A stretch of DNA of 63,205 bases, the filler included. It is 8 parts of 8 records of this genome, joined end to end, with 100 filler letters (N's around TTAATTAATTAA, not from the genome) between each part and the next. Parts side by side here need not be neighbours in the genome. Positions count along the whole stretch, not along the records: positions 10,368 to 18,999 come from SRR31156797_34555; 7 more parts are not named here. The stretch is one strand, 5' to 3'. Positions 4,413 through 19,099 of the stretch are shown here, piece after piece (positions within the stretch are counted from its first letter, which is position 1; every line of letters begins with the position of its first letter). The notes beneath the pieces are model-generated. The model made no database searches. It saw only the letters and a list, made by a program, of their open reading frames with translations, and was not told the DNA's origin. The position numbers and the translations under genes were made by a program.

Positions 4413-5403
4413 GGTTCAGATACCTGTTCAGGCAGAGTGAGGGAGACGTTGAACACAGGTGAGAGAATATATCATTTCTCACTCATTATTTTGAGTGTCA
4501 GATGAATTGGGTTAAAACGAAATTACTATGAAAATTCAGACACGCGGACTAACTATTTCCAGAGAAATATATTAACGATGCGAATCATCTGCTATATAAG
4601 TGTTACTCTCAAAAATTGCGCTATGGCCAAGCTTTGACCCTGAATTGCTGTTTTTTTGTCCATTGTAACGTGACTTGTGCACAAAGCATAGAAATGTATG
4701 TAGAAGAATAGGAAAATCTATAGTTTATAGATATTACATGCGTTTACCTTATAAAGGAAGAAGTAAAAGCAGTAATTGTTGGATAGGGTGACTTTCTAAT
4801 AAGTCCAAAAAATGAAAAGACACTAAGTCTGGAAAAATGGAGAGAAAAATATGGAGTGGAAATTGTCAAGAAGAACGCAACAGCGTTTTAGACATTTCAG
4901 AGTTTGGAAAGAATTCGAACAAGCAGAAGAAAGACATGATAACTACATGCATTTCACGTCGAAAAGGGTGACACATTCTGTTGGATTCTTAAAACCTTCT
5001 ATGGGCATTTGTTGATCCTGGAAGGAAGGAGTGGAGATCTTTACTTACCCATAAAAGGTGAGGAAAGATCATCCTTAAACCCGCTTTTTTTCTTATAGAC
5101 CTGCGACGCTTACGTGAAACTATGATTTTCCTGCTTTTCATGAATAACATAGAATTTTTTTACTCAAATAATAGGTAACTTATAGCCTAATAACTCCCAT
5201 ACTTATATGTAGCAGGATTTTTGTTCAAGACAAGAGCACAAACAAACCAATTTGAGATTATAATTTCTTGAAAATCCGATGAAACACTAATTTTGCTGTG
5301 TACATTAAAGAAAATCGGAGATTGTTTTAAAATCGCATTCTTTATCTAATTGAATCACCCAATAAAAAGGGACAGCTTATTCAAAATAATGGGAAGTATC
5401 TCT

Positions 5404-6228
5404 ATGGCTAAAATATCGATCAATCCTGAATCCTGTACACGCTGCGGAATATGCGTGAAGATATGCCCGGTTGGAATTATTATTCCCGGAGCTGATAGCA
5501 ATGTACCATTCATTCCTGCGGAGGCTGAGGCTTTCTGTTCAGAGTGTGGTGGCTGCGAGGCATACTGCCCCGTTAAATGCATCTCCCCTGTCTTTGAAAC
5601 GAGTCACTATGAACCTGAAGAAGCCGGTACTGCAGGCATCACACCTGAACAACTTGGTACTTACATGGTCAGCCGTCGTTCCATTCGCAACTATCTGGGC
5701 AAACCTGTTGACAAGGCAAAAATTGAGGACATGCTGGAAATAGTCCGCTATTCCCCGTCAGGAATGAACGGACAGCCTGTGAACTGGACAATCGTCCATG
5801 ATGCTGAAAGAGTACAAAAGCTCACATCCCTTACAATCGAATGGATGCGTAGCCTACTGGAAAGCGAGGTAGACCACCCAATAAAACCATTCTTGCCAGC
5901 ACTCATTGGCAGCTTTGAAGCAGGCAATGACCCGATATGCCGTGGTGCTCCGCATCTGGCGATAGCCCATGCTCCTGCCGAGAATCCAATGGCTTTCACA
6001 GATTCCATTATCGCCCTGACATGGTTCGAACTCACTGCTCCGGCTTTTGGTATTGGTGCCTGCTGGGCAGGTTTCCTGAAAATCGCGGCAGACTCATACG
6101 AGCCTATAAAGGAAGAACTTGGTTTGCCTGAAGGTCATGCAGTACAGTATGCAATGATGTTCGGCTATCCAAAGTACAAAGCAACAAGAGTTCCGGGAAG
6201 GAATCCTGCGAATATTAACTGGAGATGA
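5404..6228 (+). CDS. Nitroreductase family protein with N-terminal 2x[4Fe-4S] ferredoxin domain
   Basis: CTRCGICVKICP and CSECGGCEAYCP, SRRSIRNY, SPSGMNGQP, GIGACW. Confidence 0.92.
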   Translation: MAKISINPESCTRCGICVKICPVGIIIPGADSNVPFIPAEAEAFCSECGGCEAYCPVKCISPVFETSHYEPEEAGTAGITPEQLGTYMVSRRSIRNYLGKPVDKAKIEDMLEIVRYSPSGMNGQPVNWTIVHDAERVQKLTSLTIEWMRSLLESEVDHPIKPFLPALIGSFEAGNDPICRGAPHLAIAHAPAENPMAFTDSIIALTWFELTAPAFGIGACWAGFLKIAADSYEPIKEELGLPEGHAVQYAMMFGYPKYKATRVPGRNPANINWR

Positions 6229-6382
6229 TTATTCTGGGAGGAAGGTGCAGGCATAAGGGGCTGTATTTTCCTCTTTTATTCTCAACAATCCAGGCTAAAT
6301 GAATCAAAATAGAATAATTTATTAGAGACTTCGCTTGGTTACAGATGGAGTCTTTGAGCAAAGATCCTTTTAGATTTAAGAG

Positions 6383-7276
6383 CTACTTCTTATTTTTTTG
6401 GGTGCCCCTGAGTTTATTCATGAACATTACTTTGTATTCATTCAGTCGGGTTTCCCAATAGTACCTTCTAATATCCTCATCATCTATTTTTTTCTCTCGT
6501 TTTATCCAGGACGATAAATAACCATATGAATAAGGGATAAACAGATAATGAGGTTTTTTCAGGATTAAGTGCATTGCATTTAGAGCAAACAATAGAGGAT
6601 GTTTGTTTAGATAATATGTCATGAATCCATTTGCTTTGAATCCCTTCCATAGACCTTCAGCACTACTGGTCAATCTTGTCTGAGAAAGAACAACATTTTT
6701 GTACTGTTTTGTTTCCCATCCTTTTATCAAAGCCTTGACAGTTGATACTGAATCTGATGAAGGTTCGCCGGTGTATCCTCCGGTCTCAAAATAACATTTT
6801 TTCTTCCATATCCTTCCGGAACCCGAAGGCAAATTTTCATTTGATTTGCGCCATTCAAGCTTGCCATTTATTTTTTCGTAGATTCCACCACTGACAATTC
6901 CAAGTTTAGGATTTGCTTTCAGTTCAGTGATTAGTTTTTCGAAGTATTCCTGTTCAAGTACAGAATCTGCATCTAATGACGCAATATATTCATATTGAAC
7001 ATTTTCTTCATCGGAAAGCCTGATTATGTTATCAAAGCCCTCTTTGTAGACATGAGCTACGTGAAAAGTAATATCCCTGGGTCTTGGAGGAAGTTTAATG
7101 CTCCTAATCCAACTATAGTCCTGTTTAAGACCTTCGATTATTTCTGGAGTACTATCTGTGCTACCATCATCTACAATAAGCCAGATTAGTGGTTTCATTG
7201 TTTGATTTATAACAGAATCTGCAACAGACGGGAGGTCGACTTCCTCGTTTTTTGCAGGGGTTATTAAGACATACAT
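6383..7276 (-). CDS. Glycosyltransferase family 2
   Basis: ITPAKNEE, VDDGSTD and DxD (LDAD) motifs. Confidence 0.9.
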   Translation of the reverse strand: MYVLITPAKNEEVDLPSVADSVINQTMKPLIWLIVDDGSTDSTPEIIEGLKQDYSWIRSIKLPPRPRDITFHVAHVYKEGFDNIIRLSDEENVQYEYIASLDADSVLEQEYFEKLITELKANPKLGIVSGGIYEKINGKLEWRKSNENLPSGSGRIWKKKCYFETGGYTGEPSSDSVSTVKALIKGWETKQYKNVVLSQTRLTSSAEGLWKGFKANGFMTYYLNKHPLLFALNAMHLILKKPHYLFIPYSYGYLSSWIKREKKIDDEDIRRYYWETRLNEYKVMFMNKLRGTQKNKK

Positions 7277-7600
7277 AATTACACTTTTCGTTTTAATCCT
7301 TACAGTATTATATAACTTATTTCCTGTATTGCCGTACAAGCATTTAAGCTTGCTTATCTTTCTTACAAAGACTTTAAGGTTTTGTAGACTAGCTGCTTAA
7401 AATAGAATTCAGAAAGAAGTAATCTGCACTAAGCAGTTACTAATAATATGCAAATCATCCCTATAAAATATTAATACATGAAGCTACAGAAATTCCTGCA
7501 AAATCATAAAACCACTAGGTATATATAAACAGGAAATATATTTCGTATAGTTTACCAGTAGTGTTACGTTCATGAATTAATAAAAACGAGTGATACTTAA

Positions 7601-8560
7601 ATGCCGCAAATATCAGTAGTTATTCCGCTATACAACAAAGAAAGTAGTATAGAGAGAACTATAAACTCTGTTTTAAATCAAACATATCAGGATTTTGAAC
7701 TAATAATTGTAGACGATGGATCCAGAGATAGAAGTACTGAGATCGTAGGGAGTTTTACTGATAAAAGAATTAGATTGATTCAACAGGAAAATGCAGGTGT
7801 TTCGGCAGCACGCAACACAGGAATCGAAGCAGCGAGTGCTGAACTAGTTGCATTTCTGGATGCAGATGACGAATGGCTTCCTGAATTTTTGGAAACGATC
7901 ATCCGCCTTAGGGCACAATACCCTGATGCCGGCATTTACGGCACAGCGTTTAAAGTAAACTACCCGGGTTCAAGCATACCGAAAACTTATATTGCAGAGG
8001 AAGGAGAACGAATTTTACCTTCGAATTTTGGCGCATTTGTAGATTTTGGAGGACCTATTTTTAATTCTTCATCTTTTGCAGCTCCAAAAAAGGTTTTAGA
8101 AGAGATAGGAGCTTACCCTTTGGGAGTCAAATGGAGCGAAGATTCGCTGGTCTGGGGTAAAATAGCACTTCAACATCAAATTGCATACAGCCCTGAAGTT
8201 TGTTCTATTTATCATCAATACTCAGAGAATAACTCAACAGGCATCCCGGAATATCTGGAAAATCCATTTCTTAAACATGTATCTACTATAGAAAAAGATG
8301 AACTTCTAAAGCATAGTAATGAACAGGATTTCATGATGTACTGTGATCTATGCCGCACATCAACTATACGACGGAATATCTATTCAGGTTACTGTGGAGA
8401 AGCGAGACGGGAATTGTCACTTGTCACATCAACTCCATATCTCAAGAAAAAGCAGAAACTTCTGCTGATGTCATATGTCCCCCGCTTCATGATGAAAAAC
8501 ATACTAAAGCATGCAAAAACCATATCATATTTGAAGTGGAAAATAAAGGGAAGAAGCTGA
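7601..8560 (+). CDS. Glycosyltransferase family 2
   Basis: SVVIPLYN, VDDGSRD, NAGVSAARNTG, FLDADD. Confidence 0.92.
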   Translation: MPQISVVIPLYNKESSIERTINSVLNQTYQDFELIIVDDGSRDRSTEIVGSFTDKRIRLIQQENAGVSAARNTGIEAASAELVAFLDADDEWLPEFLETIIRLRAQYPDAGIYGTAFKVNYPGSSIPKTYIAEEGERILPSNFGAFVDFGGPIFNSSSFAAPKKVLEEIGAYPLGVKWSEDSLVWGKIALQHQIAYSPEVCSIYHQYSENNSTGIPEYLENPFLKHVSTIEKDELLKHSNEQDFMMYCDLCRTSTIRRNIYSGYCGEARRELSLVTSTPYLKKKQKLLLMSYVPRFMMKNILKHAKTISYLKWKIKGRS

Positions 8561-8595
8561 TATTTTAGTGTTCAAGTAATGGATCTTACGCTTTA

Positions 8596-8958
8596 TTGGG
8601 AATACAGACTAGCTGCATAAGTCTCATATTGATTGCATCCACAGGCGACGAGCAGGTAGCAAAGACACATCAGCATATTCTGGGACTCATGAATACAAAG
8701 GTCAACAAGAATGAATTCGGAAGACAGCGCGATTCTTTTGAGATCGGACTTGAACTGCCATTTCTTGATGAGCTATACAATGCGGTGTTCATCAGAGCAC
8801 CCGGCATTATTAAGACTGGGGATGATGTGATGGTCTTTGCAAAAATTGATGGTATGATAGTGGCTGCCGAATAGGTAAATGTTCTGGCACTGGCATTCCA
8901 TCCTGAGCTTACATTTGATACGAGGGTTCACCAGTATTTTTTGGATAAGCTGCTTTGA
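8596..8958 (+). pseudogene. pdxT: PLP synthase glutaminase subunit PdxT: N-terminally truncated, with in-frame TAG at 8872-8874
   Basis: FGRQRDSFE and FIRAP motifs. The same frame continues after the TAG as VNVLALAFHPEL...HQYFLDKLL-stop(8958). The GTCAG nucleophile motif has degenerated to TSCIS. Confidence 0.8.
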
Positions 8959-9144
8959 GATTTTTTGTTTAAAGATTTCCTATTATTTGAAAAACAAAGC
9001 TGAGTGTTAATATTTGGCTTCAATTGGGTGCCAAGAAGCTTTGCGGAAACTCTGACCAGAACAGTTTAATAGAATTTTGTCCTAGTAACCTATATCATAC
9101 GAAAAAAATAGGAATTTGCTGTAATTTTTGATATATAGTTAAAG

Positions 9145-9387
9145 GTGGAAAACTCCAGAATGAGGATTAGCATCAAGGATGTTTTTGAGATGAAAAAATC
9201 AAGTTACTTACTATTATATTCTCTCTGTTTTGCACTTTTTTTTGTTCCGTTCATACTAAGTGCAATTGAATTGTCCATCAGTATAGTAGCAGCAGTTACC
9301 ATAACATCAATGATTGCATCTTTAATCCCTTTTTTAATTATAATTTTGATTATACGAATAATAAACAGTGACATTAAAGAATCCTGA
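9145..9387 (+). CDS. Small hypothetical membrane protein
   Basis: Two hydrophobic stretches. Start codon uncertain (9145, 9160 or 9190). Confidence 0.4.
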   Translation: MENSRMRISIKDVFEMKKSSYLLLYSLCFALFFVPFILSAIELSISIVAAVTITSMIASLIPFLIIILIIRIINSDIKES

Positions 9388-9601
9388 ATTAAGAAGCACA
9401 TATATTTCTGAAAAATGCAGGTGAAGTCATTCTAATCATAAAACTCCACAGAAAAGAGGAGAAAAATTTGCTTATAACGATTGTTGGAATTGCTGTTCAA
9501 TCCCTATAAATACCTATTTTTTAAGGCCCCCACCTGATGAAAAGCTTTAAACTCCATTGGCTCCGATTATCTTTACTTTTAATTATTATGAGGTGACATC
9601 A

Positions 9602-10009
9602 ATGGTTAAATTATCAAATGAGATGAAAGAAGAATTTGCAAAGATGAAGATATTCCCGTTCGCAACAGCATCAAAGGATGGAGTTCCAAACGTTATCCCT
9701 ATTGGCATGTGCATGCTTCAGGAAGACTCAGAGACCGTCTGGATCGTGGACAATTATTTCCTCAAGACAAAAGAGAACATCCTGGCAAATCCAAAAGGTG
9801 CTATCTATGTGTGGGGACCGGAGATCAAAGGATGCTTCCAGATAAAAGGTGACATAGAAGTCGTCGACAGCGGAGAGGAATATGAAGCAATGCGCAAGAT
9901 CGTAAAAGAAATAGGCGAACGTTTCCCTGCAAAGTTGCTCATGAAAATGACAATTACTGAAGTCTTCGAATGCAAGAGCGGTGAAGACGCAGGAAAGAAG
10001 TTACTTTAA
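9602..10009 (+). CDS. Pyridoxamine 5'-phosphate oxidase-like FMN-binding protein
   Basis: ATASKDGVPNV, KTKENILANP and FQIKG motifs. GAGGTGA RBS. T-tract after the stop. Confidence 0.88.
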   Translation: MVKLSNEMKEEFAKMKIFPFATASKDGVPNVIPIGMCMLQEDSETVWIVDNYFLKTKENILANPKGAIYVWGPEIKGCFQIKGDIEVVDSGEEYEAMRKIVKEIGERFPAKLLMKMTITEVFECKSGEDAGKKLL

Positions 10010-10267
10010 TATTTTTATTTCCTCTTTTTCTTTTTATGACTCCATAGAAATCCTTGCTTGAATGACTCATATAATCCTAATGTGCCTGCTATGATTGTTG
10101 ACTGTCAATTCTATGGGAAATATCGTGGTTTATCGCAGTTTTTAACTTACCGGTATGCAGAAAAAGAGCTGAGGATAATGTACTTTTTTATTCATCTTTT
10201 CAAATCGTGCCAGCTTCGCCGGAACCCTTCGGGATGGTTTAAGCTAGCCATGTCTCCGATTAGTCAA

Positions 10268-10367
10268 NNNNNNNNNNNNNNNNNNNNNNNNNNNNNNNNN
10301 NNNNNNNNNNNTTAATTAATTAANNNNNNNNNNNNNNNNNNNNNNNNNNNNNNNNNNNNNNNNNNNN
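10268..10367. other. Artificial contig spacer (N44-TTAATTAATTAA-N44). Also at 19000-19099, 30778-30877, 37737-37836, 43425-43524, 50056-50155 and 56558-56657
   Basis: Identical 100-bp structure each time. Composition and gene content change across most spacers, and genes are cut at them. Confidence 0.98.
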
Positions 10368-11425
10368 ATGGATCTATTTCTGGATGATAAGATGTCGGAA
10401 TATAACATACCGGGAGCGGTAATCGGAATATTTGTGCCGGGGCGGGGAGCCTGGTTGAAAGCCAAAGGAAAGGCGGATATTGAAGCAAATAAAGATATGA
10501 ACCTTACTCACACCCTTAGAATAGGAAGTATCAGCAAGACCTTTAATGCCACCATTATCCTGCAACTGGTTGATGAGGGATTGCTCAATCTTGAGGATAC
10601 ATTAAACAGATTTGTCCCATGGGTTCCCAATTCGGAAAATATTATAATCCGTCAGCTCTGCAATAATACGAGCGGCATTTTCAATTACAGTGAAGATCAT
10701 GATTTGAATATGTCAACAGTGATTTCCTTGCACACTATACACCTGAAGAGTTGGTCCGTGTTGCCATAGGTCACGAACCCTATTTTCCTCCGGGAAAAGG
10801 CTTTCATTATTCAAATACAAATTTTGTACTACTCGCTATGATCATAGAGATGGTCACCGGCAACACCTTTAAAAAAGCGTTGGAAAAAAGGATATTTAAG
10901 ACCCTGAACCTAAAGAACACAACCTTCCCTGTTGATCAGAGCATCCACATGACAGGCAACTATAGTCATGGGTATCTTGAAGTTGACGGTGTACTAAAAG
11001 ACTATGTCGTAAGTGACCATTCTATTCAGTGGGGAGCGGGAGGTATTATTTCTGACCTCTCAGATCTGGAATTGTGGGCGGAAGTTTTGGGAGAAGGACT
11101 TCTTATAAGTAAAGAAATGCAGGATGAACGACTCAAATGGAGCCCCCATTCGGAAAGCGGTATCTTCAAATATGGAATGGGGGTTTTTTACTTGGGAGAC
11201 TTCGTAGGACATGATGGAGGCTGTATCGGATTTAATACGGCGCTGTTCTATCTTCCTTCTAAGAAAGCCACTTTCATTATTCTGCTGAATCAGAGCAATG
11301 ATTATTCTGGCGCAATCAATATCTTTTTAGGTTTTGCAAACAAGGTTTTTCCGGGGATATTTCAAATGGAAGACCGTGAAAACATACCTACAACTGAGCA
11401 TCTCCCTCTTGAGATATCAAGATAA
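10368..11425 (+). pseudogene. Serine hydrolase/beta-lactamase (AmpC/DD-peptidase-like), frameshifted and 5'-partial
   Basis: SxxK (RIGSISKT) in ORF 10368-10769. YxN (YSNTNF) and GHDGG lie in a different frame (10751-11425). Confidence 0.8.
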
Positions 11426-11970
11426 TTGGTTTTGGATTTTTCGTAACAGTCCTCTTGAGAATCTCATCCGCACAATATTGGGGACGATCAACTTATCGAA
11501 AATGCGCTCTGTATGAATCGTACATAGGCATGATTGAGAATATTGAAATGGACCGCATCATAAATGACAATGACCGGGCTTTTGTGCAGACCGTAATGGA
11601 TCTAATGGATATTACTTTGGTTTATTTCCTTTGGAAGGCTGTGAGCAGTTACATCAACGTTAGGCTGACGATAATTTTAGAACTTGTTTGAAAACTATCT
11701 CGTCATAGCCTTAATTACCGCCTATGAAAACCCAGGGAGCATTAAACAAAGATGATATGCTTTCTGATTTCAGATTTTCCGGCTTAATAGGTGCGCATGA
11801 CACGTTCACCACATGCAGACCCACCCTGGACTCACACTTTGCTGCTGTGGTGCATTGTCTCGACCAAAATATCCTTTAGTCATATTTTTTTGACACCCAA
11901 TGCTGTTTTCACTATATTTTATCCTTAAAGAACCGACTTCTTATCAGCCATCATGAGATTGGAGGGGTAA

Positions 11971-13279
11971 ATGGACATTACCAGAAGGGAAGCGCTACGC
12001 AGGGGTTTTGATCGGCGGGACCGCTCTGGCAACGGGTCTGGGATTAAGCGGGTGCGGTGACAGCAGCAGTTCTGCACAGAGTGAAAACGATTTAATCGTT
12101 TTGAACGCTAAGATCTTTACCTCGAACACAAATCAACCCACCGGCGTATTTATGAATTTTGTATCCTTCAATTTTTTGGATTTTTTCACCGAGGAAGAAC
12201 TTACCGCGGATATCTATGCCGGCATGGCCGCCGGCGCCAATCAGATATTGGCCGAGGGTATAGTATATCCCGTGGTGTCACCACGTACAATGATATCCAG
12301 TTATATAAAACGTTCCTGCCCTTTTTAATCCAATACTCGGAAGAGGGGCTTTTCAAAAATCTACGGCTGCGAGGGTCCTACTATGTCAGCCAGGTATCCC
12401 TGAAGGATGAGGCCCAGTTGAAGCAGGATTTGACAGAATGGATCTCATATTCGGTATACAACTCCGAACAGCTGAAACTGGGGGATTCGGCAAAGCTCTA
12501 CATCGACGGCGTGGGGGGATCTCACACCGCCTTTCTCCTGGAACCGTACGCGGACAAACCGGATGAATACGGGACACCCTTCTGGACCCAGGAAAACTTC
12601 AACAAGGTGTGCCGACTCATAGACGGGATGGGGCTTCAGCTGTGCACCCATGCCAACGGCGGGGCGGGCCAGCGGCGGATCATCAACAGTTATGAACACG
12701 TGAGTTATCAAAACAGTGCCTGGGATGCTAGGCACCGCATTGAGCACTGCGAACTGCCCCATCCGGATGACTGGGCTCGCATGGGGGATTTGGGTATCCA
12801 CGGCGCCGTGCAGCCTAGCCACGTCTTTGACGTGAGCCAGAAATATGTGGATCTGTACGGTATTGAGCGCGTCCAGCGCTTCATGCCCTGGAAAAGCATG
12901 GTGGACAACGGGGTGCCGCTCAGTTTCGGCAGCGACTGGTCGGCCGCGCCGGTCAATCCCCTGCCCGGATTGTTCATGGCCAAATACCGCCTCACCCTGA
13001 TGGGTAAGCCATGGGGGACCAACGGACAGCCTCGACATGGACCAGGCTGTTCGGGCCTATACGCTGGGTTCAGCCATTGATCTGAAAATGGAGGCGGAGA
13101 TCGGCTCCCTGGAGATCGGAAAATGTGCCGACTTCGTCATTCTTAAGGAAGACATCTTTGCCGATAACTGGCCCACATGGTTCGATCCCACAACCTTTGA
13201 TCCCTTTACCGATTTTAATGACAAGATATTCTTGACCGTATTCAATGGAGAAGCGGTTTTTGAAGAGGAAACCACATGA
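11971..13279 (+). pseudogene. Tat-exported amidohydrolase (YtcJ/amidohydrolase_3 family), fragmented
   Basis: MDITRREAL Tat motif and LSGC lipobox. KLYIDG, HANG, RHRIEHCE, FGSDW and GSLEIGKCADFVIL are spread over several frames, with an apparent internal deletion. Confidence 0.8.
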
Positions 13280-13292
13280 TATGCAGGACGCC

Positions 13293-13420
13293 ATGGTCGA
13301 CACCCACCCCACATCCGCCATGCTGAGTTTGATGCGAATCGGGGACAGGTGCTCAAAAAGGCGCTGGCGGCAGGGGTTCCGGTCATGGTGACAGTGTGCC
13401 TCTACAACGAGAGGGTGTGT
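13293..13420 (+). pseudogene. TatD-family hydrolase N-terminal remnant
   Basis: With one frameshift it reads MVDTHP(H)IRHAEFDANRGQVLKKALAAGVPVMVTV, resembling the DTHxH...FD.DR..V...A..AGV start of TatD. Confidence 0.55.
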
Positions 13421-13439
13421 CGTGATAACGGCCAAATAG

Positions 13440-13732
13440 GTGCTTGCCCGTCTTCGCCATTCTTCATTCAGAAACCGTTTCGAACTCGGCGTGCCTGAGA
13501 TAGAATGCATTCCGAAACGGGGCCTGGATCGGACTCGAGCCCACGCCCAGACCTTCATCACCAAGAGACTGGCGACCGCTCGTTCCCTCAGAGATGGAAA
13601 CCAGACGCACATGAAGCGGCATCCGGTCTTCATCGTACAGCATGCCACAGCACTTGTCGCAGGAAATGTCTGTCCAAATGGTGCGGATTTCCGGTAAAAG
13701 AGCAAAACACCGCCAATCCAAAAATATTGTGA
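13440..13732 (+). pseudogene. DUF4186 family protein, frameshifted
   Basis: FRNRFEL...FITKRLA...DGNQT...HPVFIVQHATA, then TCRRKCLSKW in another frame. Confidence 0.7.
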
Positions 13733-13771
13733 TCAGCCTTACTTTTATATGGAAAATACGGAGAAACATTG

Positions 13772-14158
13772 ATGGCAACGGCATTGGAACTGAAACAAAA
13801 AGGGGGCATGCATCGCTACAAATTGGAGCTGCCCCAATTTGCACCCAAGAAGCTATCGTTGGAGGCGCTGCAACTGCGCGAACGATTGCTGGAAAAAGCG
13901 AGAGAAGCTGCAACAGTGCTGAAATCCAGCTTTGGGGCTCGCCGTGTCATTCTATTCGGATCATTTGCACATCACGCCTGGTTCAGGCCGGATGCCGACA
14001 TAGATATCGCAGTCGAAGGGCTTCCTGTCTGCAATTTCTGGGAAGCCTGGAAAACCGTGGAAGAAATCATCCCGGACAGACCCGTGGATCTGGTCGATAT
14101 GGAAACAGCGATTACTGCACTGAAGCGCTCTATAAGGCGTCACGGGATAGAACTGTGA
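13772..14158 (+). CDS. Minimal nucleotidyltransferase (MNT) antitoxin
   Basis: VILFGS...DADIDIAV and VDLVD motifs. Its stop overlaps the next gene start (GTGA). Confidence 0.88.
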   Translation: MATALELKQKGGMHRYKLELPQFAPKKLSLEALQLRERLLEKAREAATVLKSSFGARRVILFGSFAHHAWFRPDADIDIAVEGLPVCNFWEAWKTVEEIIPDRPVDLVDMETAITALKRSIRRHGIEL

Positions 14159-14646
14159 GCCATCTCTTAACGGAAATTGCCGAGAGGATACGCGGTGAAG
14201 TCCCAGAATTGGAGCGTATGATAAAACGTGCCCAAACAGGATGGGATAAAGCCGGCATGACTACGACCGAGCAAGACCTTTATCTAGACTCGGTGGCCCT
14301 TAACCTTCACGGCATCTATTCAGGCATCGAAAAGTTATTTGAACTTATTGCAGTCCATCTTGATGACAGCCCTCCTACAGGCGAGACCTAGCACCGTGAT
14401 TTGCTTCGAAAAATGACTCAAGAAGTGCCTGGCCTACGCCCTGCGGTTGTGGCTTGTGACAGGCTGCCAAGGCCGGATGAATTAAGACGATTTCGACATC
14501 TTGTCCGGAACGTCTATACCTTTAACCTTGTCCCGGAGAAAGTGGCACCTATCATTGCTGGACTTTCAGAATTGTGGATTCCATTGAAAGACGAGCTTTT
14601 GGCTTTTGCCGAATACACCGCCCACATGACCGAACAACAAGAGTAA
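14155..14646 (+). pseudogene. HEPN (HepT-like) RNase toxin interrupted by a TAG at 14389-14391
   Basis: One frame reads ...LNLHGIYSGIEKLFELIA...PTGET*HRDLL...RRFRHLVRNVY. The stop sits where this family has Trp (W-H-x-x-L-L), consistent with TGG>TAG. Confidence 0.8.
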
Positions 14647-14891
14647 GATTCTTTGAGCAGATCGGCTTTCTGTTCTGGCTTTCTTATGAATTTCAAATAG
14701 GAATCTTCATATCGATGTGTGACGCCGGGATATTTGGCAAGTTGAAGGAACAGCAGTATCTTCAAAAAAACAGGCGCATGAAAAAAAAGAACTTTTTCTG
14801 AAACAGTCCGCTGTATTCTGCCGCTGAGATTAATAAGAAGTAGACCACAAGAAAGGCTGTTTTAATAAGATGAGGTAACATGTCACCCAAC

Positions 14892-14926
14892 AAAAAAGGG
14901 ATTACGCATTTAACGTAACCCCTTTA
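14892..14926 (-). terminator. Hairpin with T-tract directly downstream of the tRNA 3' fragment
   Basis: AAAAAAGGGATTACG-CATTTAA-CGTAACCCCTTT. Confidence 0.6.
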
Positions 14927-14936
14927 TTTTATTAAA

Positions 14937-14965
14937 TGGTGCCGAAGGCGGGACTTGAAACCGCC
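14937..14965 (-). repeat. tRNA-Leu-type 3'-end fragment (att core of an integrated element), not a full tRNA
   Basis: Minus strand reads GGCGGTTTCAAGTCCCGCCTTCGGCACCA (T-arm, 3' acceptor strand, CCA). No D-arm or anticodon arm upstream. Confidence 0.8.
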
Positions 14966-15373
14966 CTTGCCTAGCAAGCTGCTGTTTTAACAGAGTTTTT
15001 GATGCATATTTTATAGGGTGCACAACAGGTGATCGATTTTTGAGCCACTCACGCCACTTTTAACAACCCCAAAACACCACCACCAACCATATCCTGATCA
15101 CATCCCAGTAGCACCTTTATACAATTTTTTAACAGCATACACTATCAGTTAAATTAAGTTATATTAAGTTAAAATTTTTCAACCCTAAAAATTTGTCTGA
15201 AAATTAAACTTAAAAAAAATTATTTTCATTTCCGGAAACGCTGAAACCCGCAGTATAACTGAATATAACTAAAATTAAAATTATAATGGTTGACAAATTC
15301 ATTTTTATATGATTTACTGCTAGACTTAGGGATAATATATATAAATATAATTACAGTATGAGGTAAATAATAT

Positions 15374-15580
15374 ATGAAAAATTTACAGCATGTTGAGCCT
15401 AGTCCATACAAAAAGATTTTAAAATCTTTAGGCGTTACTCAAAACATACTAGCAAAAAATCTTGGCATACCACAGTCTAGTATGAATCTGATGCTAAACG
15501 GATTACAGGAAATGACGCCAGAAGTAAATTTTGAAATTTGTGAACTTATTACTTGTATGCAGAAGAAACAGAAACATTAA
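15374..15580 (+). CDS. Small XRE/Cro-like HTH protein
   Basis: LGVTQNILAKNLGIPQSSMNLMLNG HTH. GAGG RBS. TTGACA at 15290. Confidence 0.8.
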   Translation: MKNLQHVEPSPYKKILKSLGVTQNILAKNLGIPQSSMNLMLNGLQEMTPEVNFEICELITCMQKKQKH

Positions 15581-15684
15581 AATTTATTTAGCAGTTTGCC
15601 TGTTGTGGCACTACGGGGCGTGGGCCAGATTCCCCCGGATCTGGCACGCCACAACAGGCGATCCTTCGGGGGGAGGATGCGAAA

Positions 15685-16344
15685 ATGGAGAGTCAGGCAG
15701 AGGCTCTGAGAAAACGAAATACTACTACACCACTTAGCTATCAACAGAGGTTTGACAGATTTATTGATGGGCTAATTTATCAGGCAGAGAGTCAGGCTGA
15801 TTCAGAGGATGCACACCTATTATTTTTAGCCAGATCAAAGCTAGTTAAGGACTTAGCAAAAGTTAATGGAATTGATGATAGGTATTTATTTAAACGTTTT
15901 CCACGAGAATTATCCTACTCAAAGGAAAGTGTTTTTCCACGGGCATGGATAGAGCGGGATAAACGTATAATGGAAATGATGGAGCGCTATCCATTAGTAA
16001 TAAAAATTTTAAACTATCTTTTTAACATTAATAGGCGTTTAAAACCTGCAGAGGTGGAAGGCAACCCAGAATATAATGGAAGACCAATGGCCATATTTAC
16101 AGCAGATAGAGAGTTTTATGATGCTATTGTTAATACCTTGGGAACATCAAAGCGGACAGTGCAAATGTATATTAAAGGTTTTTTGACAGTGGGTTTATTA
16201 CAGATAGTTAATACGCTGGAAAGTAATATTAAAATTTTCAGTGATGGATACTATACACAATTTTCAGACAGACAGAGGAAGGTTTCATACATTAAAAATG
16301 ATGCTATTAACAAGCAGGCATTAAGATCATTTAAACCGTTGTAA
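15685..16344 (+). CDS. Hypothetical protein, putative winged-helix replication initiator
   Basis: GGAGG RBS. C-terminal HTH-like segment (IVNTLGTSKRTVQMYIKGFLTVGLL). Directly followed by repeated 11-mers. Confidence 0.55.
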   Translation: MESQAEALRKRNTTTPLSYQQRFDRFIDGLIYQAESQADSEDAHLLFLARSKLVKDLAKVNGIDDRYLFKRFPRELSYSKESVFPRAWIERDKRIMEMMERYPLVIKILNYLFNINRRLKPAEVEGNPEYNGRPMAIFTADREFYDAIVNTLGTSKRTVQMYIKGFLTVGLLQIVNTLESNIKIFSDGYYTQFSDRQRKVSYIKNDAINKQALRSFKPL

Positions 16345-16347
16345 TAT

Positions 16348-16442
16348 CAGAATGCAACGTTGCATTCTGCTTTTGCATTCTGCTAGCGTTTTTACTGGCT
16401 ATATCAAAGGCAGAATGCAATGGGAAATATATTGCATTCTGC
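16348..16442. repeat. Five copies of (G)CAGAATGCAA in both orientations, putative iteron origin
   Basis: Copies at 16348(+), 16360(-), 16373(-), 16410(+), 16432(-). 16348-16369 is a perfect 22-bp palindrome. Confidence 0.8.
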
Positions 16443-16946
16443 TGTAAATATTGGATATTATTGGTTAATATCAATGTTAAGGAATTTTAATTATGCCGAC
16501 ATAATAGAAACACTGTTTCCAGTGCCTACTATATGTCATTATATAATTTTATTTTATTTGTTATTGATATCCAATGCCAATAGTAAGCACAAGCGACTTT
16601 TATCAAAGTTGCATTGATAATTTTGGAAATATCAAGAGAATATGAAAAATGAAAATTAACTCTGTGAAAGATAATAAAATGTTGGTTGCCTTAGTTCGCT
16701 GGCGCTCACTGTACAACACAACATTTGGTCAACTTGCTTGCGCAAGTTGTGTTGATAAATAATTTTTGTATATCAGGATAATTAATAAAACCTTGATACA
16801 CAACAATTTACCGCGCCCCATTTATTGGTTTATATTTACAGGGTGCCGCGAACTCAATTTAACCCATTGTTACAATGATTGTGACAATATAACGCAACGC
16901 AAATAAATACAAATTAATACAAATTAAAATAAATAGGAGTAATAAC

Positions 16947-17750
16947 ATGCAAAATGAACGATTACAAATTTTTGGTTTAACCGCATCAGATACACCAAAT
17001 TATGCACGTGAGAGAGTATCTCAGTTATTTGGTGCTGTAGAAAGTAGTTTGCACGAAATGGTAAAAACTATTCGTGAAGTAAAAAATTCTGATTATTCTC
17101 AGTACAAATCATCATATGCAAAGAAATTGAAATCTGAACAGCTACTTATACCACGGCAAAAATTGCACAAAATACTAAAACAACATATAGATAATGCTGC
17201 TGCTGGTATTACGAGAGTACAGAGTAAAATTCTAAATTATTCTGAACCAAAATTAGCAGATAGTCCTACTGAGCAAATAAAATTATCCCTTAAATTCCAA
17301 GAAATACGAACCTTACTTAGAGATAAAAATACACAAGAAAAAATTGCATTAATACAGGATGGTATTGACAATAATGATCCTAGTTTCCTACTCGCTACTG
17401 TTGACTCACCTGTCCCTCTAATACCATCTGAAAAATTATTTGAACTCCGTGAAAAACATGCATATAAACAGGACCCTGAATTGATACACTACTTAGATAT
17501 TACAAAACAAACTGCTGCAATCATACGGAAAAAATGTGTTGATGCAAATGTTTCGCAAATTGAAATGTTAGTGAAGAATAAATTGAACGATCCATTACCA
17601 AAATTTACACATTATCAGACGTTTGTACCACAGAATGCCCATGATAGAAAATTGGCTAACGATCTTATTGAAAAAGAATTTAAAGTTTTATTACAGAAAG
17701 AAAAACTAGAAAATTTCAAGGAGAAAAATTCAGGTATTTCGTTGGGTTAA
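16947..17750 (+). CDS. Hypothetical alpha-helical protein (267 aa)
   Basis: Long ORF in AT-rich DNA with AGGAG RBS. No family recognised. Confidence 0.8.
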   Translation: MQNERLQIFGLTASDTPNYARERVSQLFGAVESSLHEMVKTIREVKNSDYSQYKSSYAKKLKSEQLLIPRQKLHKILKQHIDNAAAGITRVQSKILNYSEPKLADSPTEQIKLSLKFQEIRTLLRDKNTQEKIALIQDGIDNNDPSFLLATVDSPVPLIPSEKLFELREKHAYKQDPELIHYLDITKQTAAIIRKKCVDANVSQIEMLVKNKLNDPLPKFTHYQTFVPQNAHDRKLANDLIEKEFKVLLQKEKLENFKEKNSGISLG

Positions 17751-17834
17751 CAATAACAGGACCATGAGTTCTGATAGTTCCCTGTTGGTGCATCGCCAGC
17801 AGGGATATATATATACATGTAAGGAGAATATAAA

Positions 17835-18323
17835 ATGAAGAAACTAAATGAAAATGAGGTGGATATGCCTGATAGGTTACCCACAAATACACTTAGGTCT
17901 AGTAAAAAAGCGCGGCAAGAGGCATTTTTGACATTATACCCATCTAATATGTTTAATATTTCTAAAACTGCTAGAGATGTGGGTATTTCACGGCGTACCG
18001 TCCACCTGTGGCAACAACAGGATGATGCATTCAGAGAGAAAATGGACGATGCTAGGGAAACCCGTATCGACGTTGTAGAGGCTGTATTATACCAAAAAGC
18101 CGTGAACGGCGATACCATTTCCTGTATTTTTTTCCTGAAGTGTATGGGGAAAAATCGTGGTTGGATAGAACAATCGAAACAGGATATAAAACTGACGGAT
18201 GATCGGCCGCTACGCACCACAGCGGAAAATGATAAAATTATAGAAACCGCATTGAAAATGGAAATGGAGAAACCGAAATGGAATAAGATTTTGGGTTTGA
18301 ATGCTGAGCCCACAGAACACTAA
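17835..18323 (+). CDS. Phage terminase small subunit-like HTH protein
   Basis: AFL...NISKTARDVGISRRTVHLW...DDAF...VEAVLYQKAVNGDTISCIFFLK...RGW, a pattern typical of TerS-like proteins. AAGGAG RBS. Confidence 0.7.
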   Translation: MKKLNENEVDMPDRLPTNTLRSSKKARQEAFLTLYPSNMFNISKTARDVGISRRTVHLWQQQDDAFREKMDDARETRIDVVEAVLYQKAVNGDTISCIFFLKCMGKNRGWIEQSKQDIKLTDDRPLRTTAENDKIIETALKMEMEKPKWNKILGLNAEPTEH

Positions 18324-18560
18324 CACACCACAGCCGACGGGGCAGCTTCCGGTCCCACGGCGCACGGCCACGGACCATCTCCTGCCGTGGCCGACATTAG
18401 GGCATGGGTTTTTCTTTTTCCCCCTGCCCTTTTCTATATGAAACATGGGCTCAAAACTACCTCAAAACCAGGGATTTCAAAAATTGTCAGTTTGACACTT
18501 TCCGTTGATAATCACCTGAAATATGGTGTCATAAAATATCGTTTTCACTGATCCTAATGA

Positions 18561-18630
18561 AATCAAGCACTTACGCATAAATCGAGTTTACATAATTAAT
18601 TATTATCGGACATTACATAAGTTACTGATT
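18561..18630. promoter_or_regulatory. dif-like Xer recombination site (18585-18613) flanked by inverted IHF boxes
   Basis: Minus strand ATGTCCGATAA-TAATTAA-TTATGTAAACT. WATCARNNNNTTR matches at 18561-18573(+) and 18618-18630(-). Confidence 0.6.
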
Positions 18631-18751
18631 ACATTGGCTGCTATTTATATTTTTCTCTTATTTTCAGCTACTTCCATTTTTCGGTTCTCGCAATGTCCGG
18701 AATATTTTGTGACACTCTGACCCCTAAAAACAGGGTGAATATGGGTTCAGC

Positions 18752-18997
18752 CTATTTTTCAGATTCTCCATTTTCAGAAGTTTTTCCCCTTGGTTTCCCT
18801 TCACACAACCAGTATGCATGATTGACCAATTCGCTTTCAGTAGGCGTTTGCTTGTCAAGCGTTTTAGTCTGCTCCAGCTCTAGGGCTTCCACTGGATGAA
18901 ATTTCTCATCATTAAGGATTTTCTTATGAATTTTCAATAGACAATCATAAAATGGATTCTCTTTTTCACCTGAAGTTTCCCAATTTTTTGCAGCTGT
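18752..18997 (-). CDS. C-terminal fragment of an unknown protein running off the contig end
   Basis: Frame is open from the contig edge (TAAKNWETSGEKENPFYDCLLKIHKK...) to the stop at 18752. Confidence 0.45.
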   Translation of the reverse strand, partial: TAAKNWETSGEKENPFYDCLLKIHKKILNDEKFHPVEALELEQTKTLDKQTPTESELVNHAYWLCEGKPRGKTSENGESEK

Positions 18998-19099
18998 TGN
19001 NNNNNNNNNNNNNNNNNNNNNNNNNNNNNNNNNNNNNNNNNNNTTAATTAATTAANNNNNNNNNNNNNNNNNNNNNNNNNNNNNNNNNNNNNNNNNNNN

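Follow-up and report, generated by a model that had tools for sequence, protein, structure and literature searches.

The right end of one contig (positions 10368–18999) in a composite DNA sequence of 63,205 nt, hereafter the window, carries a small integrated element that starts at position 14937. The window is composed of eight contigs separated by spacers of the form N44-TTAATTAATTAA-N44, and position 18999, where the known part of the element stops, is a contig end followed by such a spacer. The element comprises the 3′ fragment of a tRNA-Leu gene, an AT-rich arm, and four open reading frames (ORFs) on the plus strand, which encode a helix-turn-helix (HTH) regulator, a putative replication initiator (ORF2), a conserved protein (ORF3) and a homolog of the small terminase subunit of phages (TerS; ORF4). 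Judged by this gene content, positions 14937–18999 appear on balance to be the attR part of a minimal phage satellite inserted at a tRNA-Leu gene. The four ORFs had been proposed in an initial annotation made from the letters of the window, and an ORF listing places them where they were predicted; all of them are intact, each with a ribosome-binding site.

Genes and features of the element

The element opens with a tRNA-Leu 3′ fragment on the minus strand (14937–14964), which contains part of the T arm, the acceptor 3′ strand and the CCA. It is identical in 27 of 28 nt to the 3′ end of a tRNA-Leu(caa) called by ARAGORN in the IMG/VR contig L086; the last 23 nt are exact, the sole difference is at a T-stem position, and farther upstream the two sequences diverge. 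An exact match to these 23 nt was found in two IMG/VR contigs, one of which is L086. No whole tRNA was called at 14937–14964 by ARAGORN, and the Rfam tRNA model also misses the fragment, as is expected because it is only about 28 nt long; a Rfam scan of the element gave nothing credible. The fragment is the predicted distal attachment-site repeat (attR), a tRNA 3′-end duplicate at the distal junction, and a tRNA-Val 3′ fragment is found in the equivalent position of two related loci (L003 and L006, described below). Its orientation places the inserted DNA on the right, with the intact tRNA expected beyond the contig end. The GC content per kilobase drops from 0.52–0.54 at 12–14 kb, in the host genes, to 0.31–0.36 at 15–18 kb. 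The tRNA-Leu duplicate followed by AT-rich DNA that had been annotated is confirmed. Elsewhere in IMG/VR, L087 carries this tRNA-Leu 3′ end with no tRNA attached (301–323), 95 nt from the contig end; it probably marks the attachment site of a different element or phage with the same tRNA-Leu target.

An AT-rich arm (14965–15373) separates attR from the first gene and contains 23-nt inverted repeats at 15149–15171 and 15256–15278, which are 87% complementary and may be arm sites of a recombinase. Clustered repeats are also present between the att repeat and the first gene of L003 and L006.

The first gene (15374–15580, plus strand) encodes a putative 68-residue Cro/CI-type HTH regulator, which weakly matches PHROG repressor families, HTH_26 (E 0.007), a HigA-type HTH (E 8.6e-6) and HTH_3. 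The predicted HTH gene is thus present with Cro/CI-type matches, although every one of these falls under the cut-offs. The gene in the same place of L003 encodes a protein with 34% identity (E 6e-11). No AlpA or MerR family was matched at E ≤ 0.1, and Stl-like repressors are too diverse to judge.

From the HTH gene to ORF2 runs a structured leader (15594–15688, plus strand), a GC-rich island within AT-rich DNA, in which a long outer stem surrounds two hairpins; a final short hairpin pairs the ribosome-binding site of ORF2 a few bases ahead of its ATG. The minimum free energy of the leader is -52 kcal/mol (z -4.6), which none of 200 shuffles equalled. The same architecture, with a differing sequence, is found ahead of the ORF2 homologs of L003 (z -3.6) and L006 (z -4.1) and, in weaker form, of L005 (z -1.8), and in a four-sequence alignment compensatory changes affect 8 of the 20 consensus pairs, including 5 of the outer stem. 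A covariance model of the leader, searched against 560 kb, returned its own four training sequences and a weak antisense self-hit only. Small modules of repressor, leader and rep gene are known from plasmids. By analogy, the leader may control the synthesis of the ORF2 protein, a lead that rests on four sequences.

ORF2 (15685–16344, plus strand) encodes 219 residues, close to the 220–260 residues of most of its relatives. A full HMMER search returned 133 cluster representatives at E ≤ 1e-3 and 64 at E ≤ 1e-10, with clusters formed at 50% identity. The family is unnamed as far as Pfam, PHROG, NCBIfam and PADLOC, in none of which ORF2 matches a family, and ten nameless clusters that were looked up can tell, no literature search having been aimed at it. 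Three of the contigs bearing these ten relatives are 58–301 kb long, which suggests chromosomal copies. Scanned with Pfam, the 64 closest members gave scattered weak matches to winged HTH families, none of which recurred in more than 3 of the 64, and the sole match of the ORF2 profile among PDB sequences is a MarR-like winged HTH protein (E 0.014). A word-index search found no relatives of ORF2 or ORF3, and alignment A3 (the ORF2 family) and alignment A6 found no match in species genomes.

With the 64-sequence alignment, AlphaFold (AF2) produced a model of ORF2 with a predicted local distance difference test score (pLDDT) of 93.2 and a predicted template modelling score of 0.74, which consists of helices until about residue 117 and a C-terminal winged helix thereafter; a fold from the single sequence (pLDDT 46.6) was discarded. 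Foldseek found no match to the model at E ≤ 0.001 in PDB and BFVD, where a “Replication initiator A family protein” heads the BFVD list (E 0.012) and 4pql has an E of 0.27. In a VIA-align survey of 48,161 representatives, 4pta (“MDR initiator”) came first (Z 7.0, root-mean-square deviation 3.5, 107 aligned residues), and 4ro3 (Z 6.0) and DnaD N-terminal domains (Z 5.7–5.9) were also matched. Re-scoring of the top 1000 Foldseek matches gave Z 8.0 for 4pql (root-mean-square deviation 4.1, 116/130), 7.9 for 4pt7, 7.5 for 5kbj (“Rep-DNA complex”) and 6.1 for 4ro3. The alignments with 4pql, 4pt7 and 5kbj cover 112–116 residues and span model residues 36/50–208, whereas ordinary winged HTH regulators align with just 65–80 residues. 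These three structures, which lead in both score and length of the match, are plasmid initiator domains of the RepA_N type, and one is in complex with iteron DNA. The consulted part of one report identifies 4PTA and 4PT7 as the N-terminal domains of RepA from the staphylococcal plasmids pSK41 and pTZ2162, 5kbj as a RepA_N-type N-terminal domain bound to its own iteron, and 4RO3 as the N-terminal domain of RepA from PLE, a satellite of Vibrio cholerae (10.1101/639039). The RepA_N-like fold is a consistent lead, short of proof, and ORF2 is probably an iteron-binding replication initiator whose predicted fold resembles RepA_N and DnaD N-terminal domains.

Three bases past the ORF2 stop begins the cluster of iterons that had been annotated (16347–16442), which contains five copies of the 11-mer TTGCATTCTGC within 96 bp. 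Four copies are exact and one has a single mismatch; three are direct and two inverted, so that the cluster is made up of two semi-palindromes and one direct copy. Elsewhere in the 63 kb, the 11-mer has a single one-mismatch match. Semi-palindromic iterons accompany RepA_N initiators, and the present arrangement of five copies with inverted pairs has this form. Comparable DNA follows the ORF2 homologs: L003 has four copies of a different 10-mer within 95 bp past the stop (10 matches across the locus against 2.35 expected), L005 has a 16-nt inverted repeat directly past it (read by eye), and L004 has hairpins and a 39-nt inverted repeat, which lie within a nominal 177-residue ORF. Iterons are therefore present behind the ORF2 gene in all three loci that have intergenic DNA there (the window, L003 and L005). 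The differing repeats behind diverged ORF2 proteins fit putative cognate binding sites, and the cluster is probably the origin of replication. No cluster of DnaA boxes was found near the iterons.

An AT-rich non-coding spacer follows (16443–16946). It had been described as hairpin-rich, and it does contain a perfect 8-bp palindrome (16730–16749), but the segment 16660–16770 folds no better than shuffled sequences (z -1.4, not significant). When the spacers of the window, L003 and L004 were aligned, no convincing common block appeared, and an unwinding region or a pac site are guesses at its role.

ORF3 (16947–17750, plus strand) encodes a conserved protein of 267 residues, which is 32% identical over 262 residues to the product of L004 8837–9709 (E 6e-41). 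This is the one homolog found; ORF3 has no credible family in Pfam, PHROG, PADLOC or NCBIfam and no PDB sequence match, and only unnamed clusters in Atlas. The earlier description of the gene set as unfamiliar holds for ORF2 and ORF3 as regards curated families. Neither a single-protein scan of IMG/VR nor alignment A5 found ORF3 there, and tblastn against phage and plasmid collections was also empty. A YdaT_toxin match (E 0.0033, 38 residues, below the cut-off) was set aside as chance.

ORF4 (17835–18323, plus strand) encodes the 162-residue TerS homolog. It matches phrog_4044 with an E of 4.8e-13, and terminase families make up 7 of its 10 PHROG matches; the Pfam family Sf6_terminase scores 18.3 bits, below its cut-off of 27. 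By tblastn, residues 1–136 match terS of Flavobacterium phage 1/32 (E 4e-9), and matches were also obtained to terS of Weissella phage WCP30 and to a gene of phage PJN03 annotated as a hypothetical protein (E 3e-13). In both phage 1/32 and phage PJN03, terL, the gene of the large terminase subunit (TerL), starts within the matched gene. These matches bear out the annotation of this ORF as TerS-like, with homology across both the HTH and the core.

A single-protein scan of IMG/VR with ORF4 gave no match, and an alignment of ORF4 with three relatives led to 79 distinct IMG/VR loci, with similarity over residues 21–134. A script found a plus-strand ORF of at least 150 residues starting at -60 to +400 nt from the terS stop in 63 of the 79. 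A Pfam control was run on 42 of these 63 loci, one per near-duplicate group as picked by eye, and 25 of the 42 downstream ORFs carry a TerL domain (E ≤ 1e-5, mostly Terminase_3). The remainder, all without a family, encode 190–210 residues (11 loci) or 469–569 residues (6 loci), and two of the latter six show weak terminase matches at E ≤ 0.01. Five loci scored as having no next ORF, with an overlap of more than 60 nt, hold TerL in three cases and a large ORF without a family in two. In the window, no plus-strand ORF of at least 60 residues, and hence no terL, is present in the 676 bp from terS to the contig end. ORF4 belongs by homology to a phage TerS family that normally stands in front of terL, unlike here.

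Two observations were made among the IMG/VR loci. In one group (L016, L019, L022, L023, L025, L032–L035, L039 and L041), a TerS relative of 113 residues is followed by a protein of 190–210 residues without a Pfam family in the place of TerL. In addition, the TerLs of two phages that lie beside TerS relatives contain intein splicing domains (L011 865–2715, L028 6603–8603).

Related elements

One metagenome scan revealed four related loci, L003, L004, L005 and L006. The most complete is L003, on a 51.7-kb contig, in which 30-nt direct repeats with 97% identity (9139–9168 and 15510–15539), corresponding to the 3′ end of a tRNA-Val(cac), lie 6,371 bp apart. They enclose, in order, a Cro-like HTH gene, an ORF2 homolog, repeats, two small ORFs, TerS, cargo and a tyrosine integrase that ends 16 nt from the tRNA. 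Its TerS is 35% identical to ORF4 (E 9e-35) and matches phrog_4044 (E 6.9e-13), and the opposite strand behind it encodes an Lcl_C-domain protein and a small serine resolvase. In the att-bounded 6.4 kb, no structural, TerL, lysis, tail or holin family was found, and host genes flank both sides; family scans showed no recognisable excisionase. The layout predicted for the element is seen in L003, where structural genes are lacking and the far side bears both an integrase and an intact tRNA.

The other three are partial or differently built. L006 comprises a tRNA-Val fragment, a terminator, repeats, an HTH gene and an ORF2 homolog, after which the contig ends, and in L005 the ORF2 homolog lies about 600 bp from the host genes ruvC-yebC. 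In L004, on an 86-kb contig, a segment of approximately 6.6 kb splits comEC (region 4859–13768), with the Competence domain ending at 6412 and the metallo-beta-lactamase domain starting at 13052. This element contains a small resolvase, homologs of ORF3 and ORF2, and a large serine recombinase at the junction. Insertions of phages in competence genes are known, and the comEC insertion is comparable to these.

Among the elements whose relevant part is visible, TerS is present in two of three and ORF3 likewise in two of three. The co-occurrence of the four ORFs that had been suggested is thus partial: ORF2 is accompanied by the HTH gene and TerS in L003 and by ORF3 in L004, where TerS is absent. 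ORF2 appears to mark a set of very small site-specific elements, and because its syntenic genes remain intact at 32–36% identity across tRNA-Leu, tRNA-Val and comEC sites, the module seems to be maintained.

Further repeats were noticed in these loci. A 25-nt unit is repeated head to tail in L003 (13844–13940), within a nominal 73-residue ORF just upstream of the integrase, where three overlapping 47-nt copies spaced 25 nt apart make up 97 nt. Beside the att repeats of L003, TAAACTTACAGTA occurs three to four times (9231–9280, 15422–15436), and several copies of units of roughly 70–100 nt lie beside the att repeat of L006 (1020–1440). The clustered repeats by the att sites of L003 and L006 may be recombinase arm sites.

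Contig end and host side

The non-coding stretch behind terS (18324–18751) consists of a GC-rich segment followed by an AT-rich one with an 11-mer resembling a XerD arm. For the search, an 11-nt motif that we take to be the XerD arm was used; it has one exact match in the window (18585–18595), with 0.12 expected and a match in 12 of 100 shuffles. It also occurs once in L004 (6448–6458, at the left junction of the element) and in 4 of 86 other loci. Of the dif-like site that had been annotated, this single 11-nt match stands, but the partner arm is poor by eye and the site is unproven. If real, it would be a multimer-resolution site, which would fit a plasmid-like replicon.

The last feature is the 3′ end (81 codons) of a minus-strand gene (18752–18999), which runs off the contig and has no family; by analogy with L003 it is probably cargo. 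In the Logan contigs of the sample, positions 18970–18999 are common to two left-hand unitigs, the present one with a depth of 36 and another of 6,227 nt with a depth of 36.7, and both enter one right-hand unitig of 1,608 nt with a depth of 72.4. This assembly fork indicates that the contig stops at a two-copy repeat and at no biological end. A contig of 2,036 nt (depth 32) has near its end a copy of the tRNA fragment, with one other letter over 14934–14964, followed by unlike sequence, and is a candidate for the tRNA-proximal junction; a search for joints in the Logan contigs of this sample reported none. In a search of sequencing runs, the stretch was present in one sample only, which is probably where this DNA came from, and no RNA run was listed as containing it. 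ARAGORN found no tRNA-Leu anywhere in the 63-kb window, and no integrase was found among 28 ORFs scanned from the other seven contigs, all of which are ordinary chromosomal genes.

On the host side of the tRNA fragment, a terminator-like hairpin (14895–14925, minus strand) with a 13-pair stem and a T run is probably the original terminator of the tRNA. The hairpin (match at 14884–14924) recurs in two further contigs of this sample, where it is followed by the apparent 3′ end of a different tRNA, and it may be a unit that is repeated behind several tRNA genes. Farther left (13769–14646), a nucleotidyltransferase (Polbeta, E 7e-9) and a HepT-like protein (E 2.5e-17), whose ORF spans profile positions 38–109 only, look like a toxin-antitoxin pair of the MNT/HEPN type. 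On the same contig, a beta-lactamase-family gene is distributed over two overlapping ORFs (10368–10769 and 10751–11425) and an amidohydrolase gene over three (12008–12328, 12418–13080 and 13037–13279); these split genes between 10368 and 13279 could be due to frameshifts or assembly errors, or could be pseudogenes. The per-kilobase GC content among the eight contigs ranges from 0.31 to 0.66, and because of this difference the bin may mix organisms.

A proposed minimal satellite and its alternatives

The reading of the element as a satellite rests on gene content and one complete relative, not on signs of excision or packaging. If it is correct, the Cro-type regulator and the structured leader would hold ORF2 low while the element is integrated. 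Upon induction, presumably by a helper phage, an integrase predicted beyond the contig end would excise the element, and ORF2 would bind the five iterons behind its own gene and start plasmid-like replication. The element’s own TerS would then recognise its DNA and recruit the large terminase of the helper, which would lead to packaging in the capsids of the helper; as a gene for capsid resizing is not recognisable, the element might be packed as multimers. A satellite is suggested above all by the absence of terL behind terS in both the window and L003. No capsid, portal, TerL or tail genes were found up to the contig end, as the initial annotation had stated, but the scope of this result ends at 18999.

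Several results weigh against this reading. The known part of this copy stops at the assembly fork, before an integrase, an intact tRNA or a second att site is reached. TerS is not fixed in the family, as it is absent in L004. ORF2 was found neither in IMG/VR, by a single-protein scan or with alignment A3, nor by tblastn in phage and plasmid collections, and no relative of ORF2 or ORF3 occurs among the 79 TerS-bearing IMG/VR loci. The structural Z scores of ORF2, at most 8.0, are moderate and lie in what the tool calls the “common” range, and PF06970 (RepA_N) was matched neither by ORF2 at E ≤ 0.1 nor by any of the 64 scanned members at E ≤ 0.01. The annotated “putative Rep” has accordingly kept its winged helix, the iterons behind it and its RepA_N-like matches, at moderate scores and with no RepA_N Pfam family. 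Finally, instead of an origin, the repeats could form a set of operators bound by a transcription factor.

Some of these results would also suit an integrated plasmid-like or cryptic replicon, in which ORF2 and the iterons maintain a circle, the TerS-like protein serves as a regulator or directionality factor, and transfer takes another route. L004, which shares ORF2 and ORF3 and lacks TerS, agrees with it, as do the absence of the ORF2 family from the viral collections searched, the absence of a recognisable excisionase in L003, and the weak matches of the N-terminal HTH of TerS to transposase and resolvase HTH families. However, the TerS similarity extends beyond the HTH through the core (residues 1–136 against phage 1/32, 21–134 against the IMG/VR loci), the core is conserved between the window and L003, and no relaxase, partition or conjugation gene turned up in family scans, so that we regard such a replicon as unlikely, though the most probable of the rivals. 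Less probable again is a larger prophage or composite island of which only this end is seen, its packaging and structural genes lying beyond the contig end. The contig does stop 676 bp behind terS at a repeat-induced fork, and phages do carry this TerS family in front of terL; yet phage terL genes overlap terS or come straight after it, whereas here those 676 bp lack a plus-strand ORF of the minimal length searched, and the opposite-strand gene behind terS gives the order of terS and cargo seen in L003, the complete 6.4-kb element. An old insertion that is decaying and no longer mobile, with which the one T-stem difference from the tRNA-Leu consensus and the seemingly frameshifted host genes on the contig would agree, is very improbable given four intact ORFs with ribosome-binding sites and full-length relatives, and iterons that are exact copies.

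As a putative minimal satellite, the element can be compared with several known systems. In pathogenicity islands of the SaPI type, a replication gene is followed by an iteron origin. Like these islands and the wider group of phage-inducible chromosomal islands (PICIs), the element combines site-specific integration, a putative regulator, a replication gene with iterons and its own TerS, and it has no tail or lysis genes; TerS without tail or holin genes is seen in both the contig part and L003. The consulted part of one report describes a PICI core of five components, an integrase, a regulatory module with homology to alpA, merR or stl, a primase-replicase, a gene for capsid morphogenesis and TerS, and gives 9.5 kb as the median size (PMC10085698). 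The present elements differ from that description in several respects. No primase or helicase domain occurs in the ORFs of 14937–18999 or in L003, and the replication gene encodes instead a 219-residue winged-helix protein. A capsid-morphogenesis gene was not recognised among the ORFs of the window, in which ORF3 has no assignable family or fold, and the complete relative measures 6.4 kb against the PICI median. The regulator is of the Cro type and is located at the end far from the integrase.

The closest functional parallel may be PLE, which, in the portion of the report consulted, replicates through an iteron-binding initiator with the RepA_N fold and without primase or helicase activity (10.1101/639039). 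The suggestion that a satellite with an initiator in place of a primase would be of an undescribed type was therefore overstated. The N-terminal domain of the PLE RepA (4ro3) is among the structural matches of ORF2 (Z 6.0–6.1), both systems have an iteron origin, and PLE has a large serine recombinase, as does L004. The two differ in that no sequence similarity was detected, ORF2 has no separate C-terminal domain, and the elements described here are far smaller, carry TerS (window and L003) and mostly use tRNA sites and a tyrosine integrase. The RepA_N initiators of the plasmids pSK41 and pTZ2162 provide the best and longest structural matches of ORF2 and likewise have semi-palindromic iterons beside the gene. 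Compared with them, ORF2 lacks a PF06970 match, is shorter and has no host-specific C-terminal domain, and its iterons are downstream of the gene.

PICMIs of the Vibrionaceae are, as far as the consulted text describes them, inserted beside fis with a core of int, alpA and primase and without terS, and their packaging as concatemers has been proposed (PMC10803314). At about 6 kb, with a minimal gene set and no capsid-remodelling genes, they resemble the present elements, which differ by the absence of an AlpA or primase family and by the presence of TerS, a winged-helix initiator and a tRNA site. In the sections consulted, some marine VEIMEs are reported to have terS as their only phage-like gene and some to have plasmid-like initiators (10.1101/2022.07.26.501625), and PICI-like tycheposons are said to reside at tRNAs and to carry terS (10.1101/2020.12.28.424599). 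These too are small integrative elements, compared here by description only, and their modules may overlap with ours; the ORF2 and ORF3 families have no IMG/VR match. The general kind of element is thus known, from TerS-bearing satellites and from a satellite with a RepA_N initiator, and it is the combination, the ORF2 and ORF3 families and the leader that are new.

The present element is one of a recurrent family whose members measure about 6–7 kb. Going further, we tentatively propose, with more doubt than for the single element, that the ORF2 family represents an unrecognised and widespread lineage of satellites of approximately 6 kb, with a RepA_N-like initiator, an iteron origin and, in many of them, TerS. 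This proposal includes insertion at tRNA genes or comEC, interchangeable tyrosine or serine recombinases, and a new RNA leader that controls the initiator. If true, these would be the smallest TerS-encoding satellites known, and Barth et al. would be confirmed in their suggestion that pairs of a RepA_N protein and a recombinase on chromosomes may be cryptic satellites, as worded in the consulted part of their report (10.1101/639039).

If the elements are satellites, their known range would grow to include very small ones made up of a regulator, an initiator with its origin, TerS and a recombinase only, and it would reach into uncultured lineages that are missed by tools of the SatelliteFinder type, which require a primase-replicase. 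The conserved leader is a candidate for a new cis-regulatory RNA, and the ORF2 family could possibly be employed as a marker to search metagenomes for such elements. In satellites of this kind, ORF2 would also offer a compact model of RepA_N-type initiation.

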